Positions 5,728-39,743 of a DNA stretch of 64,000 nucleotides are shown in pieces. How positions within the stretch are numbered: the first letter of the stretch is position 1; every line of letters starts with the position of its first letter. The DNA comes from an uncultured bacterium (GTDB taxonomy: Bacteria; Actinomycetota; Acidimicrobiia; Acidimicrobiales; VFJN01): NCBI GenBank assembly GCA_963756425.1, contig CAVWNW010000012.1, positions 160,783-224,782 on the forward strand, in the 5' to 3' direction. A model generated the notes under the pieces. The model worked only from the letters and a program-made list of their open reading frames with translations. It was not told the DNA's origin and did not search any database. A program made the position numbers and the translations under genes.

Positions 5728-6012
5728 CTATCGCCCGTGCCCGACGCCGATGCGGCCCACGAAGCGGGCCCGGCGGCGCTGGAGCCGCATCCGGCGCAGC
5801 CGGCGGACGACCAGGGGGTCGTACGCCAGGGCGTCGGGATCGTCGAGCAAGGCGTTCAGCAGTCGGTAGTAGCGGGTCGGCGAGAGGTGCAGCTGCTCGC
5901 GAATGCCGGCGCTCTTCGGCGCCGGGAGCATCCACCAGCACCTCTCGAAGTCGACGATCGCCCGGTCGCGGTCGGATAAGGACACTCGGACAAGGCTGGC
6001 GTGGCCACCCAT
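5728..6012 (-). CDS. DUF3263-type small protein
   Basis: LSDRDRAIVDFERCWW...KSAGIREQLHLSPTRYYRLLNALLDDPDALAYDPLVVRRLRR matches my recollection of this actinobacterial family. The long upstream ORF extension is rejected. Confidence 0.6.
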   Translation of the reverse strand: MGGHASLVRVSLSDRDRAIVDFERCWWMLPAPKSAGIREQLHLSPTRYYRLLNALLDDPDALAYDPLVVRRLRRMRLQRRRARFVGRIGVGHGR

Positions 6013-6069
6013 CCAATGCAAGCACCCTCCGTGGGTGGCGGAAGAGGTCGGCGATATGGTCGCGCCGCC

Positions 6070-6142
6070 GCCCGAGTAGCTCAGCCGGCAGAGCAGGCGC
6101 CTTGTAAGCGTCAGGCCGCGGGTTCGATTCCCGCCTCGGGCT
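6070..6142 (+). tRNA. tRNA-Thr (anticodon UGU)
   Basis: Manual cloverleaf: GCCCGAG-TA-GCTC-AGCCGGCA-GAGC-A-GGCGC-CTTGTAA-GCGTC-AGGCC-GCGGG-TTCGATT-CCCGC-CTCGGGC-T, 73 nt. Confidence 0.9.
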
Positions 6143-6161
6143 CGGAGGAGCGCTCGGGTGA

Positions 6162-7091
6162 TCAGCGCCGCCGGGCGATCTCGAAGCATGCGAGCGCGGC
6201 CGCCGCCGACACGTTTAGGGATCCCAGGCGGCCGTGCATGGGGATGGCCACCAGCTCGTCGCAGCGCTCGCGGACCAGGCGCGACAGCCCCTTGCCCTCC
6301 GCGCCCAGCACGACGCAGACGGGGCCGTCGGCACCCGCCAGGTCGTAGATCGACGCCGCCGCCTGTCCGTCGAGGCCGACCACGTGCACGCCGGCGTCGC
6401 GCATGCGCGCCAGCGCCGCCGGCAGGCCCCCGACCACGGCGATGGGCAGGTGCTCCACGGCTCCGGCGGCCGCCTTGGTCGCCGCCGGCGTGACGTGGAC
6501 GGCGCGATGGCGCGGCAGCACCACGCCCGTGACGCCCGCGCACTCGGCGGAGCGCAGGATCGCACCGAGGTTTCCGGGATCGGTGACGCCGTCCAGCCCA
6601 ACGAGGAACGGCGCCACCACCCCGCCGTCCCCGCTGCCGCGCGGGGCGGCGTCGTGGGCGCGGGGCCCTCCAGCGACCAGGTCGTCGAAGTCGGCCTCGG
6701 GCAGCGGTGCCGCGAGGGCGAGCACCCCCTGGGGTGCCTCGCTCCGCGCCTGGGCGGCGAAGCGTCCCCGTCCGACGACGTTCAGGGGCACCCGGTTGGA
6801 CTCGGCGAGCTCGCGGATGTCGCGCAGGATCGGCGCGTCGCCCCCAGCGCTCTCCATCCACACCTCCCTGACCCGGCGGGTGCCCGCCAGCAGGAGCTCG
6901 CGGACCGCCTGGCGGCCCTCGACCTGGTCGCCCCCCAGTCCCCGACCGGACGAGCCGGCGTGACCCCGCCGACCCGCCGGACCCGACGGGCCCCGGGCTC
7001 GGCCCGTCGACCTGGCCGCCGGTGGTGCACCACGTCCGGGACGCCCCGACGTCCCGCTGCGCGAGCCCGGACGGCCACGGCGCGGGGTCAC
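6162..7091 (-). CDS. rlmB: 23S rRNA (guanosine-2'-O)-methyltransferase RlmB (SpoU/TrmH family)
   Basis: VEGRQAVRELLLAG...LDGVTDPGNLGAILRSAECAG...VLGAEGKGLSRLVRERCDELVAIPMHGRLGSLNVSAAAALACFE. It has an Arg/Gly-rich N-terminus. The proposed GTG start overlaps the ispF stop (GTGA). Confidence 0.85.
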   Translation of the reverse strand: MTPRRGRPGSRSGTSGRPGRGAPPAARSTGRARGPSGPAGRRGHAGSSGRGLGGDQVEGRQAVRELLLAGTRRVREVWMESAGGDAPILRDIRELAESNRVPLNVVGRGRFAAQARSEAPQGVLALAAPLPEADFDDLVAGGPRAHDAAPRGSGDGGVVAPFLVGLDGVTDPGNLGAILRSAECAGVTGVVLPRHRAVHVTPAATKAAAGAVEHLPIAVVGGLPAALARMRDAGVHVVGLDGQAAASIYDLAGADGPVCVVLGAEGKGLSRLVRERCDELVAIPMHGRLGSLNVSAAAALACFEIARRR

Positions 7092-33121: not shown

Positions 33122-33873
33122 GGCGTGCCTTCGCGGCCAGCGGGCGTCCCCTGCGTCGCGGAGCGCGCCTGCTGTGCCAGGCGACGGGCGGCGTCGGCGA
33201 GAGAACGGTACGCGCGGCGTTCGTCGGCCGGGAGGGCCCGCAGGTGACGGCGGATCGTGGCCTCGTCGCCCCGGGCCGCCGGGCCTGTCAGCCCCGTCGC
33301 CGGGCCGAGGGCGGCGACGTTGTCGAGCGTGGCCCGGGCCAGGTCGACGTAGGCCTCGAACGGCACGCCGACGGCCTCGCTCAGGCGTTCGACCTGCCCC
33401 ATCAGCGCCACCACGTGATTGGAGGCGATGACGGCGGCCGCGTGGTAGACGGGACGGTCGGCGTCGGCCACCTCGAACCATCGGCCGCGCAGGGCGCGCA
33501 CGACGTCGTGGGCCAGCGGGTCGCCGGCGATGGCGAACCAGGAACCGACGAGGCGCCGAGCGCCGAGCGTCGTGTTGGGCAACGCCACCAATGGGTGGAC
33601 CGCTGCCCGCCGCCGGTGGGGGGCCAGCGCCGCGAGGCCGAGCGACCCGGCCAGGTGGGCGACGACCGTGCCGGGTACCGGATCGACCGCCCGCGCGATG
33701 TCGCGGACGCGATCGTCGGGCGTGGCGATCACCAACAGGTCGACGCCCCGGGCGGCCGGTGCCAGGTCGTCGCCCCGACCCAGCAGCGGCGCCACGCTCC
33801 AGTGGGCGGCGCGGAGCGCCCGCGCCAGCGCCGTGCCGGCGCGACCGGGGCCGATGATCCGTACCCGGACCAC
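33118..33873 (-). CDS. Rossmann-fold DUF2520-type oxidoreductase-like protein
   Basis: VRIIGPGRAGTALARAL...HPL...YHAAAVIASNHVVAL. It occupies the position between folK and panC that is typical in actinobacteria. Confidence 0.65.
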   Translation of the reverse strand: MVRVRIIGPGRAGTALARALRAAHWSVAPLLGRGDDLAPAARGVDLLVIATPDDRVRDIARAVDPVPGTVVAHLAGSLGLAALAPHRRRAAVHPLVALPNTTLGARRLVGSWFAIAGDPLAHDVVRALRGRWFEVADADRPVYHAAAVIASNHVVALMGQVERLSEAVGVPFEAYVDLARATLDNVAALGPATGLTGPAARGDEATIRRHLRALPADERRAYRSLADAARRLAQQARSATQGTPAGREGTP

Positions 33874-33875
33874 GG

Positions 33876-34385
33876 TCAGTGCGGGGCCAGCTCGTCGAGT
33901 GCACCCACGGGCTCGACGTAGCCCGTCGATGCGTCGAGGGTGGCGTCGTCGACCAGGTCGGGGGCGAGGTCGCGCAGCGGCGCCAGCACGAAGCGGCGCT
34001 CCCACATCCGGGGATGGGGCACCTGCAGGTCGGGCTCGTCGACCGTGACGCCGTCGATCCACAGGACGTCGACGTCCAGCGTCCGGGGCCCCCAGCGCTC
34101 GTCGCGCACGCGGCCGGCTGCCGCCTCCAGGCGGTGGCACACGCCGAGCAGGTCGTGCGGCGCCCGTGCCGTCTGCAGCTGTGCAACCAGGTTCAGGTAG
34201 GCGTCCTGGCCGCCCGGTCCGCCAAGCGGTTCGGTCTCGTAGACCGGCGACACTGCTTGCAGGTCCACGGCCCGCAGCGTGTCGACCGCCTCGCGCAGGT
34301 AGCGCACCCGGTCGCCCATGTTGGACCCGAGCCCGAGGAACGCTCGCCTGGGGCTCGGGGCGTCACCCTCGGCGCCGGTCATCAT
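33876..34385 (-). CDS. folK: 2-amino-4-hydroxy-6-hydroxymethyldihydropteridine diphosphokinase
   Basis: AFLGLGSNMGDR...SPVYETEPLGGP.QD.YLN...RWGPRTLDVDVL...PHPRMWERRFVLAPL. Confidence 0.9.
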   Translation of the reverse strand: MMTGAEGDAPSPRRAFLGLGSNMGDRVRYLREAVDTLRAVDLQAVSPVYETEPLGGPGGQDAYLNLVAQLQTARAPHDLLGVCHRLEAAAGRVRDERWGPRTLDVDVLWIDGVTVDEPDLQVPHPRMWERRFVLAPLRDLAPDLVDDATLDASTGYVEPVGALDELAPH

Positions 34386-34765
34386 CTCGTCCGGACCACG
34401 TGCACGCCCGAGGTTGCCAAGTCGTGTGGCACGGGGGGACGCAGCTTCCGCACCGCGAGGTCGACGGCGATGATCCGGGTATCCACGCCGAGCACGGCGT
34501 GCGCGACGAGCTCCGCCAGGCGCTCCAGCAGCGCCACGTGCCCCGCGCCGACGGCCGTCGCCACGGCATCACACACCGCGCCGTAGTGAACCGTGTCCGC
34601 GAGATCGTCACTCCGGCCGGCCGGCCCCAGATCGACGACCAGGTCGAGGTCGATCTCCAACGGCTGGTCCTGCTCGCGTTCGATCGGTAGGACCCCCACC
34701 CGCGCGGGCACGCGGAGGCCGCGCAGCTCGATGCGATCCCAGGGCAGCGCCGAGGGTTCGCTCAT
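34382..34765 (-). CDS. folB: Dihydroneopterin aldolase
   Basis: IELRGLRVPARVGVLPIEREQDQPLEIDLDL...DLADTVHYGAV. It overlaps folK by 4 nt. Confidence 0.9.
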   Translation of the reverse strand: MSEPSALPWDRIELRGLRVPARVGVLPIEREQDQPLEIDLDLVVDLGPAGRSDDLADTVHYGAVCDAVATAVGAGHVALLERLAELVAHAVLGVDTRIIAVDLAVRKLRPPVPHDLATSGVHVVRTR

Positions 34766-35277
34766 CCGGGTTCGCGGAGCTCATCGGCGGAGGCCACCAA
34801 CTCCCGCCCCTCCGGACCGAGCTGTCGCCCGGTCAGGCGCTCAGTGACCGAGATCGCCTGGGGGCCGTAGGGCACGAGGCCGGCCCACAGCACGTAGCCC
34901 GCGACCAGGCCGCAGATGCGGTCGCCCACCTCCTCCTGATGGATCAGGAGCTTCTCGCCCTTCGCCAGGAGGTCGCGAATCTCGGTGTAGAGCGCGAGCT
35001 GGAACTCGACCGGGTCATCCTGGGGCTGCTGGGGCCGGTGCAGCCACGCCACACCCAGCTCGTCGTAGTTGTGCAGGTTGTGGGGCGCGGCGATGAGCGA
35101 GATGACGTGCGTGAAGCCCTGCTCGCGGATCCAGATGATCTCCTCCTGGCGGCGCACCCGGCGATGGTTGGCCCCGTAGCCGCCCGGCCGCTCGCAGATG
35201 GCCAGCCGGTCCTTGAGCACCCACACGAAGTTGCGGGGGGTGATGCCCTGGGCCCACTTGCCCTTGGTCGGTGGCAA
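34762..35277 (-). CDS. Dual-specificity/Cys-phosphatase-fold protein lacking the nucleophilic Cys (HQX5R)
   Basis: GFTHVISL...WLHRPQQPQDDP...KLLIHQEEVGDRICGLVAGYVLWAG aligns to the DSP pattern VLVHCxxGxxRSxxxxxAYLM. The Gln codon CAG (34936-34938) sits at the Cys position. The start is TTG with an AAGGAG SD 8 nt upstream. The gene overlaps folB by 4 nt. Confidence 0.65.
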   Translation of the reverse strand: MPPTKGKWAQGITPRNFVWVLKDRLAICERPGGYGANHRRVRRQEEIIWIREQGFTHVISLIAAPHNLHNYDELGVAWLHRPQQPQDDPVEFQLALYTEIRDLLAKGEKLLIHQEEVGDRICGLVAGYVLWAGLVPYGPQAISVTERLTGRQLGPEGRELVASADELREPG

Positions 35278-35301
35278 ATCAGGTACTCCTTGCTGGAAAC
35301 A

Positions 35302-36141
35302 TCACGCGGCCGCCAACACCCGGTCACAGGCCTCGATCGCCCGCACGGTGGCGGGCACCTCGTGGACGCGGACCATGCTGGCGCCGCGCAACAAAGCCCA
35401 CGCGGCGGTGGCGATCGAGCCCTCCAGGCGGTCCCCAACCGGTGGGACGGTCCGGGTGCGGTCGGCTCGCGCCGCCAGGGCGCCGAGCGTCGACTTGCGG
35501 CTGGTGCCGACCAGCACCGGATAGCCGGTGGCCACCAGGACGTCGAGGTTGGCGAGGAGGGCGAGGTTGTGATCCAAGGTCTTCCCGAAGCCGATGCCAG
35601 GATCGATCCACACCTCCTGCACCCCTGCCGCCCGGGCGGCGTCGGCCCGGTCGACGAGGAAGTCGCACACCTCGGCCACGACGTCGTCGTACACCGGGTC
35701 GGCCTGCATGGTCCGGGGATCGCCCAACATGTGCATGGCCACGAACGCGGTGCCGATGCCGCCGGCCACCGCCGCCAGGCTGGCCGACACGTCGTTGATC
35801 ATGCGGGCCCCGGCGGCCACCGCGGCCTCGGCCACGGCCGCCTTGCGGGTGTCGATCGAGACAGCCACGCCGTCGGACGCCAGCGCCTCGACGACGGGGA
35901 GCACCCGCCGCAGCTCCTCGTCGACGGGCACCGGCTCGGCCCGGGGGCGGGTGGACTCACCGCCCACGTCGACCCAATCCGCTCCCTGGTCCACCATCGT
36001 GCGGCCGTGGGCGATGGCGGCCCGGTGGTCGAGGAATCGTCCGCCGTCGGAGAACGAGTCCGGGGTCACGTTGACGACACCCATGACCCGGCGGCGTCCG
36101 CTCTCCACGATCGGCAAGCATATGTCGCGCCCTGTGACCAC
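35302..36141 (-). CDS. folP: Dihydropteroate synthase
   Basis: VMGVVNVTPDSFSDGG...DVGGESTRPRA...SIDT...INDVS...DPGIGFGKT...LVGTSRKS. The start is approximate (GTG 36141). Confidence 0.9.
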   Translation of the reverse strand: MVTGRDICLPIVESGRRRVMGVVNVTPDSFSDGGRFLDHRAAIAHGRTMVDQGADWVDVGGESTRPRAEPVPVDEELRRVLPVVEALASDGVAVSIDTRKAAVAEAAVAAGARMINDVSASLAAVAGGIGTAFVAMHMLGDPRTMQADPVYDDVVAEVCDFLVDRADAARAAGVQEVWIDPGIGFGKTLDHNLALLANLDVLVATGYPVLVGTSRKSTLGALAARADRTRTVPPVGDRLEGSIATAAWALLRGASMVRVHEVPATVRAIEACDRVLAAA

Positions 36142-36206
36142 CGACGGCGCGCTCCGGCACCGCAGGGTTGCGTTCCGTAGCGTCTCGGCAGGCAACTGGT
36201 CCGGCG

Positions 36207-36941
36207 TCAGCGGGGTGGTGATTCGGCCGCCTCGACCGCCACGTCGAGAGCCAGCTCGGCCATGGCGAAGAAGCCCGTCTCGCGCTCGCCGGAGCTGATC
36301 GCCTCGGCGCGGGGGATGTGGTCGCTGACGGTCGAGACGCACAACGCCCGCGCCTGGTGGGCGGCGGCGATGGTGTAGAGGGCGGCGGCCTCCATCTCGA
36401 CTGCGAGCACGCCGTGCCTGCTCAGCGCGTCGGTCACCTCGGGATCGCTGTCGTAGAAGGTGTCGGTGGACAGGATGGTGCCGACGTGGGCGGTGATGCC
36501 TCGCTCACGGGCCAGGCGCCACGCCTCGACGGCGAGCCCGAAGTCGGCGGCCGGGGCGTACGTGATGCCCTTGAACCGCCGTTCGATCATCGCCGAGTCC
36601 GTGTGTGCGGCCAGGGCGATGACGAGGTCTCGGAGGGCCACGGCGTCGTGCAGCGCACCGCACGACCCCACCCGGATCGCGGTCGTCACGCCGTAGAAGC
36701 GGAACAGCTCGGTGGCGTAGATGGCGATCGACGGCATGCCCATGCCGGTCCCCTGCACCGAGATGCGGCGGCCCCGGTACGTGCCGGTGAAGCCCAGCAT
36801 GTTGCGGACCTCGTTGTAGCACTGGGCGTCGTCGAGGAAGCGCTCCGCGATGGCGGCGGCCCGCTTGGGGTCGCCCGGGAGCAGCACCGCGTCGGCGATG
36901 TCGCCGGGCTTGGCCTCGTTGTGTGGCGTCGGCGCAGTCAT
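36207..36941 (-). CDS. deoD: Purine nucleoside phosphorylase, DeoD-type (PNP_UDP_1 family)
   Basis: HNEAKPGDIADAVLLPGDPKRAAAIAERFLDDA...GRRISVQGTGMGMPSIAIYATEL...RVGSCGAL...VLAVEMEAAALY. Confidence 0.85.
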   Translation of the reverse strand: MTAPTPHNEAKPGDIADAVLLPGDPKRAAAIAERFLDDAQCYNEVRNMLGFTGTYRGRRISVQGTGMGMPSIAIYATELFRFYGVTTAIRVGSCGALHDAVALRDLVIALAAHTDSAMIERRFKGITYAPAADFGLAVEAWRLARERGITAHVGTILSTDTFYDSDPEVTDALSRHGVLAVEMEAAALYTIAAAHQARALCVSTVSDHIPRAEAISSGERETGFFAMAELALDVAVEAAESPPR

Positions 36942-36971
36942 AGATCCCCCGCAGCGTACGGGGCCGCGACG

Positions 36972-37592
36972 CTATCTCTGGCCGACGATGAAGCGCATCG
37001 CCTCTTCCCGGGTGGCGACGCTGGACCGGAACAGGCCCCGGACCGCCGACGTCACGGTGGTCGCGCCCGGCTTGCGCACGCCCCGCATCGTCATGCACAG
37101 GTGCTCGGCCTCGATCACCACCATCACACCCCGGGGCTGGAGCGTGCGGTCGATCTCGTCGGCGATCTGAACGGTCAGGTTCTCCTGCACCTGTGGCCGG
37201 CGGGCGAAGGCGTCGACCAGGCGCGCCAGCTTGGAGATCCCGGTTATCCGGCCATCCTCCCCGGGGATGTACGCCACGTGGGCCTTGCCGATGAACGGGA
37301 TGAGGTGGTGCTCGCAGATCGACTGCATCGGGATGTCCCGCACCATGACCATCTCGTCGTGGCCGGCCTCGAACGTCACGGCCAGGTGGGTGTCGACCTG
37401 CTCGTGGATGCCCGAGCAGATCTCGGCGTACATGCGGGCGACACGCTCGGGCGTGTCGCGCAGGCCGTCGCGGTCGGGATCCTCCCCGATGGCCTCGAGG
37501 ATCTCCCGCACTGCCTTGGCGATCCGCTCCATGTCCATCGGGGTATCGATGGGCGGGAAGTCCCGGCTTGGGCTGGGCCACTCGTCGGCCAC
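36972..37592 (-). CDS. folE: GTP cyclohydrolase I
   Basis: [13 protein letters not shown]...[20 protein letters not shown]...[19 protein letters not shown]. Confidence 0.95.
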
Positions 37593-37724
37593 TACGTCCC
37601 GCTCCTGTGGCTGCGCGGCGGCCCACTCGTGGCTCGCTCGCTCTCACCTTGCTTCCCCGTCACCCTCGACGGACGCTCGCTCATGGGCGCGACCTCGCTG
37701 TGTCTCCTCCGCTCGCCCCTCGGG

Positions 37725-39743
<2,019 letters not shown>

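Follow-up and report, generated by a model that had tools for sequence, protein, structure and literature searches.

A folate-operon-embedded family of dual-specificity-phosphatase-fold proteins without the catalytic cysteine in Acidimicrobiia: a candidate bacterial pseudophosphatase

What does a protein predicted to be built like a phosphatase, but devoid of the phosphatase nucleophile, do in the middle of a folate-biosynthesis operon? The question is raised by a 64,000-nucleotide stretch of DNA (the window) from an uncultured member of the Acidimicrobiales (assembly GCA_963756425.1, contig CAVWNW010000012.1, positions 160,783 to 224,782). Here, a gene for a 171-aa cysteine-less protein of the dual-specificity-phosphatase (DSP) fold (34762..35277, minus strand; gene X, with X as its product) lies between folP and folB; it was characterized through its open reading frame, a family profile, an AlphaFold2 model, Foldseek matches and the ratio of nonsynonymous to synonymous substitution (dN/dS). 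The first-pass annotation of this DNA had already found the 171-aa frame between the two fol genes, and had suggested that its product might dephosphorylate dihydroneopterin triphosphate (DHNTP) or monophosphate (DHNMP). The comparisons presented here establish the DSP fold of X and the disappearance of its catalytic triad, as well as how the gene is conserved and distributed and that it occurs independently of the fol genes. They lead us to propose that X prototypes a hitherto undescribed family of small, cytoplasmic proteins that resemble DUSP23/VHZ but dispense with Cys-based chemistry, for which a non-catalytic binding or regulatory role is the candidate function; we would put the probability of this reading, drawn from sequence comparisons, at roughly 0.45, somewhat short of even odds.

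The window protein matched no entry of Pfam or NCBIfam, and none of 58 diverse family members reached any Pfam threshold, with six of the 58 touching the DSPc model weakly (best E 0.004). As a single sequence, X aligned weakly with PDB 25XA (E 0.04); a profile of the 58 class-wide homologues recovered the same structure with E 2.4e-13, and also found VHR (~1e-3), DUSP23, Tk-PTP and KAP. 25XA represents CCaDUSP, a bacterial enzyme that loses its activity upon the mutation C97S and has a sulfate-binding P-loop (H-C97-R-A-G-Y-G-R103) (PMC13687992). Both the single-sequence and the profile alignments place residues His113 to Arg120 of X (HQEEVGDR; 34918..34941, minus strand) upon the HCRAGYGR P-loop of this enzyme. 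The AlphaFold2 model, built on the family alignment, has a mean predicted local distance difference test (pLDDT) score of 94.6 and a predicted template-modeling (pTM) score of 0.89, and its best Foldseek match is DUSP23/VHZ (2IMG; TM 0.75/0.85), with KAP, Tk-PTP and Cdc14 among the other top matches. There were 245 PDB matches at E<=1e-3, of which the 50 best are all proteins of the DSP/protein tyrosine phosphatase (PTP) fold. The structural neighbors further include the tri/pyrophosphate-directed DSPs BVP, PIR1, Siw14 and PFA-DSP1, and, at rank 48, the pseudophosphatase STYX. Thus, X is predicted by both profile and model to have the DSP fold, a five-stranded sheet with flanking helices, and to be homologous to the DSPs, which bears out the DSP template recognized in the first-pass annotation. 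With more than 3300 homologues and a dN/dS of 0.02-0.08, both the similarity to this template and the conservation are far beyond chance.

The residues by which enzymes of this fold operate were counted in 286 Acidimicrobiia sequences that cover the loop, a set biased toward the order, and in the class-balanced alignment of 58. At the nucleophile site (residue 114) not one of the 286 sequences has a Cys, the position being occupied by Q (150), R (43), G (42), H (15), A (10), K (8) and others. In the window protein it is Gln114, which immediately follows His113 and is encoded by CAG (34936-34938); as this codon differs from TGY in all three positions, the catalytic Cys is genuinely absent rather than obscured by a sequencing slip, just as the earlier annotation had argued. 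The site of the P-loop Gly (117) is occupied by Val or Leu (also Phe) in the family, while that of the P-loop Arg (120) retains an Arg in this protein (R120), in ~70% of the order-biased set and in 31 of the class-balanced 58, and is a Trp in a sister clade from Thermoleophilia. Residues 115 and 119 are acidic in all of the 286. The strings GFTHVISL, PQQPQDDP and LLIHQEEVGDRICGLVAGYVLW, from which the DSP template had been read, are all present in X as quoted, and the HQX5R pattern proposed as its signature has the right spacing in this protein; but Gln114 and Arg120 are both unconserved, and hence this pattern has to be rejected as a signature of the family, which is defined instead by a new motif. 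PQQPQDDP can hardly be the general-acid loop it was taken for, with the canonical position in the β4-α2 (D) loop (two residues after Pro82) being Q in this protein and G, R, P, S or A across the family, and with D87/D88 kept solely within the order. The idea of a phosphate-binding P-loop fares no better, given a cradle without Cys, Gly or a family-wide Arg that has conserved acidic residues in their midst. In short, of the fold and P-loop geometry that profile and structure prediction were expected to confirm, the fold stood (pLDDT 94.6, with DUSP23 as the best match) and the canonical P-loop residues did not.

The new motif takes the form ERPGG-x4-HRxxRRxEExxW, Tyr71 and His113-x-[DE]-x3-[DE]. 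Its principal element spans residues 29-46 (E-R-P-G-G-x4-H-R-x-V-R-R-x-E-E; 35140..35193, minus strand), which are invariant or nearly so in both the 58 class-wide sequences and a further alignment of 330+ sequences, and it contains HRxVRR, an Arg-rich stretch of six residues inserted in comparison with 25XA and DUSP23. The full set of invariant or near-invariant residues comprises P14, R15, W19, E29-R30-P-G32-G33, H38-R39, R42-R43, E45-E46 and W49 in the N-terminal part, followed by S60, N67, Y71, H113, D119, G123, G154 and R158. Most of the signature is common to the Thermoleophilia sister clade. Cys28 was considered as an alternative nucleophile and rejected, as Ser, Ala or Gly takes its place in other members and Ala in the sister clade. 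In some lineages X bears a genuine 80-260-aa Lys/Ala/Pro-rich, histone-H1-like “PAKKA” C-terminal tail (L120, 5001-6017; P0121, P0127, P0137, P0138), and the gene nevertheless stays in the operon, its start and stop overlapping folP and folB. Nucleic-acid binding via such tails was likewise rejected, since the tails of other members are acidic or Ser-rich, the pI of the core ranges from 5.2 to 11.5 and no consistent pattern emerges.

The HCxxGxxR cradle on which a phosphatase of the Cys type depends has been dismantled in X; the most economical reading is that of a pseudo-DSP with a rebuilt functional crevice. X indeed has the fold of a phosphatase, replacements at the catalytic residues and a history of purifying selection, the features by which pseudophosphatases are recognized, with function by binding as the candidate element. 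The P-loop, the β2-α1 loop and the β3-β4 insert together form the walls of the active-site crevice in DSPs. By homology mapping, the conserved residues of X probably line this old crevice, and we infer that it acts by binding rather than by catalysis. We accordingly envisage that X would act via the crevice that was formerly the active site: one wall might be formed by the inserted Arg/His-rich β2-α1 loop (E29 R30 ... H38 R39 R42 R43 E46), a second by Tyr71 and a third by the acidic former P-loop headed by the invariant His113. Such a crevice could accommodate a metabolite or protein partner that bears phosphate or some other charge. The operon position of the gene would, on this proposal, be inherited rather than diagnostic of a substrate, being maintained since the operon itself is maintained. 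A possible parallel comes from SsoPTP, an enzyme of the same fold, in which Glu40 serves as an alternative, second general acid (PMC13577060). We assume that Glu40 lies in the loop equivalent to the β2-α1 loop of X, the review giving the residue number alone; if it does, the loop of X would also reach the active site.

Several considerations weigh against the pseudo-DSP proposal. At least 10 invariant polar residues, among them two His, four Arg and several carboxylates, are more typical of an active or metal site than of a binding surface. The class-long operon position with translational coupling might yet point to a functional link with pterin metabolism. Further, the Arg-rich loop and the acidic former P-loop may simply form internal salt bridges, and the grouping of the conserved residues about the former pocket is, by homology mapping, a predicted one.

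The distribution of X is that of a core gene. Its more than 3300 homologues are all unnamed or labeled “hypothetical”; among the named carriers are Microthrixaceae, Iamiaceae, Iamia, Rhabdothermincola and Ca. Microthrix parvicella. A single copy of the gene is present in 39 of 41 close relatives and, of 200 high-quality genomes sampled across Acidimicrobiia, in 199, including those of 0.9-1.1 Mb. In a phylum-wide sample X is confined to this class plus, weakly, one other family, namely the Thermoleophilia sister clade (~227 clusters). The dN/dS of 0.02-0.08 was measured within the genus; across 66 order-level loci the mean identity of X (72%) exceeds those of FolP (67%), FolB (60%) and FolK (68%), whereas between orders X diverges faster, with 35-40% identity against 45-55% for these three enzymes. 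As to pterin-binding proteins elsewhere in the genome of the window, a second Pterin_bind/dihydropteroate-synthase-like paralogue lies outside the window (G000:C12:478852-479574; 209 bits), alongside a MetH-type hit and the folP of the operon. In the two assemblies of the same genus without X (G003 and G009) the matching Pterin_bind hit is retained at 202-208 bits: G003 has neither an operon-type folP nor folB, while G009 lacks folB and has, on a short contig, a partial Pterin_bind hit of 130.9 bits, such that its operon folP may be merely fragmented.

With so many invariant His, Arg and carboxylate residues, a hydrolase that works without Cys stays in contention. In this alternative, X would be an active phosphohydrolase with a rebuilt site of His38/His113, Arg and carboxylates, possibly with a metal, and would act on a general substrate such as nucleotide or other tri/pyrophosphates in a house-cleaning capacity, perhaps with DHNTP included. 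In keeping with this, E29, R30, H38, R39, R43, E46, Y71, H113 and the acidic residues 115/119 are strictly conserved in both Acidimicrobiia and Thermoleophilia, purifying selection on X is very strong, the gene is retained in 1-Mb genomes and DSPs that cleave tri/pyrophosphates (BVP, PIR1, Siw14 and PFA-DSP1) are among the structural neighbors. A broad substrate range, as in the case of NudB of E. coli, would also account for X in genomes that have lost folate synthesis. However, a PTP/DSP-fold hydrolase without the Cys nucleophile has no known precedent, D and E replace each other at 115 and 119 between the clades, and R42 and E45 are not retained in Thermoleophilia. We hence regard this alternative as unlikely, albeit deserving of serious attention.

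The gene neighborhood of X is likewise conserved. The order folP-X-folB-folK persists from 98% down to 32-38% identity and is also found in the 1-Mb genomes; among 80 order-level loci, folP is upstream of X in 66 and folB is downstream in 70. Conservation next to fol genes, the absence of which had been set beforehand as grounds for abandoning a folate connection, is therefore present class-wide. The X family arose before the radiation of the class Acidimicrobiia and was fixed between folP and folB, with which it is co-expressed by translational coupling. Departures from this order go in both directions: in some families pyruvate kinase or other genes have been inserted between X and folB, with X remaining beside folP, and in other lineages X remains with folB-folK while folP is elsewhere. 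In two loci of this kind (L029 and L030, of families f104 and f113), the operon is split into folE-folP-X and folB-folK by a pyruvate kinase gene of opposite orientation. Candidate FolP-X and X-FolB “fusions” in a clustered protein library were rejected as frameshift or gene-calling artefacts with Arg/Pro-rich linkers that are out-of-frame read-throughs. More generally, many of the apparent TilS-X, FolP-X and X-FolB multidomain relatives (P0123, P0151, P0164, P0236, P0125, P0131) are frameshifted read-throughs, a caveat for fusion mining in gene calls from high-GC metagenomes.

Another interpretation would be that X assists the folate enzymes without being a catalyst itself, as a scaffold, chaperone or regulator of FolP, FolB or FolK, or a holder of a pterin (pyro)phosphate. 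Consistent with such a role are the tight coupling to folP upstream and folB downstream, with overlapping stops and starts even in distant lineages, and the fact that insertions ahead of folB leave X beside folP; its high within-order conservation combined with faster divergence between orders would fit co-evolving protein contacts. Nevertheless, X persists without relaxation in genomes that have none of these partners, and in the family designated f7 it adjoins tilS, far from folB and folK. Hence, we consider an accessory role quite unlikely.

The genomes without the partners also bear on the proposal that X carries out the dephosphorylation steps. HPPK is missing in eight of the 200 high-quality genomes, seven of which belong to three genera of family f7, where X lies behind tilS. 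All seven also lack GTP cyclohydrolase I (FolE), and the two that were checked further (G030 and G244) lack FolB and the operon-type FolP as well; from their gene content, these seven look like folate auxotrophs. They all keep X, at 220-231 bits, compared with 227-233 bits in the folate-proficient members of the family. The seven (G030, G244, G384, G396, G405, G408 and G481) are small, nearly complete Acidimicrobiales genomes of 1.7-2.5 Mb, and one genus, g28, contains both folate-proficient and folate-deficient members. Two further loci display the aftermath of fol gene loss: in the first (L105; hpt-ftsH-X-DUF2520-panC) all four fol genes are gone from around an intact X, and in the second (L097; tilS-ftsH-X-fpg) X is likewise intact. 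In both it carries every signature residue, and neither their genomes nor a third has an HPPK anywhere, which brings the genomes that have X under the same constraint without HPPK to at least 10 in total. A functional link of X to FtsH or TilS, which such ftsH-X and tilS-X loci might intimate, was rejected, these arrangements being better explained as remnants of an ancestral string tilS-hpt-ftsH-folE-folP-X-folB-folK after removal of the fol genes. The converse case is provided by G255, a complete 2.2-Mb genome and the only high-quality one without X, in which folE-folP-folB-folK are present and folP and folB are ~75 bp apart.

The Thermoleophilia sister clade extends this pattern. It shares the ERPGG..HR..R..E..W motif, Y71, H113 and the acidic residues 115/119 with X; its loop is mostly H-C-D-R-x-x-E-W, with a Cys in 95 of 120 sequences and neither the P-loop Arg nor the Gly. 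In the three neighborhoods examined, no fol genes lie near its gene, which has a gene for a 4HBT-type thioesterase upstream and glycosyltransferase genes beside it. In the contigs concerned (L115-L119) the gene, at 6001-6490, follows the 4HBT_2 thioesterase and precedes a glycosyltransferase/Bac_transf exopolysaccharide cluster; it is divergent from genes for an ECF (extracytoplasmic function)-sigma-like protein and a large Big_13-like protein. The thioesterase context, together with the placement of X directly before DUF2520 and panC in L105, hints at a possible connection to acyl-CoA or pantothenate chemistry.

X and the fol genes therefore occur independently of each other in both directions, and the selective value of X, to judge from its undiminished constraint where they are missing, would be independent of de novo folate synthesis. 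This bears upon the proposal that X is a dedicated DHNTP pyrophosphatase and/or DHNMP phosphatase of Acidimicrobiia, an analogue of FolQ. The attraction of the idea lies in the fact that the DHNTPase gene is unassigned in most bacteria and that FolQ and FolQ2 were found in fol clusters (PMC1971073); X is correspondingly embedded in folE-folP-X-folB-folK throughout the class, and metatranscriptome contigs of close relatives run across folK-folB-X. The present data weaken it, in that a dedicated phosphatase should track the pterin branch, and X does not: it is retained in the seven genomes without FolE and FolK, has been left in place where the fol genes were deleted, is missing from the fol operon of G255, has relatives in Thermoleophilia without any fol context, and has lost the canonical catalytic residues and phosphate cradle. 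Thus, X is probably not the “missing” folate-pathway phosphatase, and the dedicated role suggested in the first-pass annotation strikes us as very improbable. A variant of the hydrolase alternative would be that the PTP/DSP scaffold was turned into a Cys-independent phosphohydrolase through His38, His113, Arg30/39/42/43, E29, E46, D/E115 and D119, acting by a phospho-histidine or a metal on tri/pyrophosphate esters including DHNTP, and so combining the FolQ step with house-cleaning. The wider house-cleaning role would explain the retention of X in folate auxotrophs; even so, we find this combination distinctly improbable.

The anatomy of the locus in the window conforms to that of a translationally coupled operon, all of whose genes named here are on the minus strand. 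The stop of folP (dihydropteroate synthase, 35302..36087; Pfam Pterin_bind 2.5e-76, TIGR01496) lies at 35302-35304; the start of folP is given as the Met just before the Pterin_bind domain, and the true one may be slightly upstream. Within the 24-nt gap that follows this stop is the Shine-Dalgarno sequence AAGGAG of X (35286..35291), read from the sequence 8 nt upstream of the TTG start (35275-35277), which has GTG at the same position in congeners. At the other end, the stop of X and the start of folB overlap by 4 nt in an ATGA (34762..34765), likewise read from the sequence, and a tight stop-start junction of this kind recurs in distant relatives; both the strong ribosome-binding site and the 4-nt overlap agree with the earlier description. 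Downstream are folB (dihydroneopterin aldolase, 34382..34765; Pfam FolB 7e-29, TIGR00525) and, with another 4-nt overlap, folK (HPPK, 33876..34385; Pfam HPPK 9e-39, TIGR01498), followed in turn by genes for a DUF2520 oxidoreductase, panC, panD and nadB. The string of fol genes is headed by folE (GTP cyclohydrolase I, 36972..37592; Pfam GTP_cyclohydroI 1.4e-77), which comes after ftsH (37725-39743). Between folE and folP is a gene for a DeoD-type purine nucleoside phosphorylase (36207-36941; Pfam, NCBIfam), which occurs in ~3 of the 80 order-level X loci and in some of those from close relatives (L001, L007-L009); having been inserted recently, at the level of the genus, it stands outside the conserved operon. 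A promoter and terminator scan of 33700-37800 found nothing and is uninformative for a high-GC actinobacterium. The above-mentioned metatranscriptome contigs, from rRNA-depleted rhizosphere samples and relatives ~91% identical to the window, run unbroken over folK-folB-X (e.g., 34149-35082), and are supportive of the expression of X, without amounting to proof for this strain.

We found no description of the X family in Pfam, NCBIfam or the literature. Five signature proteins specific to the class Acidimicrobiia, all unnamed, were listed in a survey of 2018 (PMC5962788); X could be mapped to none of them. According to reviews, only one or two bacterial DUSPs have been characterized, both as active enzymes (PMC13577060, PMC13687992). 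As far as a limited literature search shows, X would represent the first family of DSP-fold pseudophosphatases from bacteria. The actinobacterial class of which X is a single-copy core gene abounds in soil, fresh water, the sea and activated sludge. The placement of X in the middle of a textbook operon invites annotation by guilt-by-association as the missing folate phosphatase, against which the double dissociation described above argues. If it proves to be a binder, X would offer a prokaryotic model for the recycling of phosphatase folds; if catalytic, a new mechanism on the PTP fold.

Among known systems, the closest to X are the DUSP23/VHZ-type DSPs, for which we used human VHZ (2IMG/4ERC), CCaDUSP of Ca. 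Chlorohelix (25XA), the archaeal Tk-PTP (5Z59/5Z5A) and SsoPTP. They have the same fold and size as X and supply its best structural (TM 0.75/0.85) and sequence (E 2.4e-13) matches, and share with it an N-terminal PxNFxWV..LA strand pair, an hhVSL strand, an LhH strand leading into the loop-plus-helix, and an R..LGP motif. X differs from them in lacking the Cys nucleophile, the P-loop Gly, a conserved P-loop Arg and the general-acid Asp, and in featuring the 6-residue HRxVRR insertion, the acidic loop and the status of a class-wide core gene in the fol operon; the activity of CCaDUSP, for its part, requires Cys97 (PMC13687992). BVP (1YN9), PIR1/DUSP11 (4MBB), Siw14 (6BYF) and PFA-DSP1 (7MOF) illustrate that the fold shared with X can act on triphosphate and pyrophosphate groups, but all of them use the HCX5R cysteine that X is without. 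The DHNTP pyrophosphatases FolQ/NudB, of the Nudix superfamily, and FolQ2, an HD-domain protein, resemble X in being encoded by extra genes in folate clusters (PMC1971073). They are nonetheless unrelated in fold and motifs, our Pfam and NCBIfam searches having returned no Nudix or HD match for X, which, unlike them, is present in genomes without the pathway. In function, the nearest analogues of the proposed pseudo-DSP would be STYX (2R0B) and MK-STYX, which likewise have the DSP fold without the catalytic Cys and function as binders rather than catalysts. STYX has retained the P-loop Arg as well as a phosphate-binding pocket, and recognizes phosphoproteins; in X, by contrast, the cradle has been dismantled and a different motif conserved, in a bacterial, operon-encoded protein related to STYX through the fold and not by sequence beyond it.

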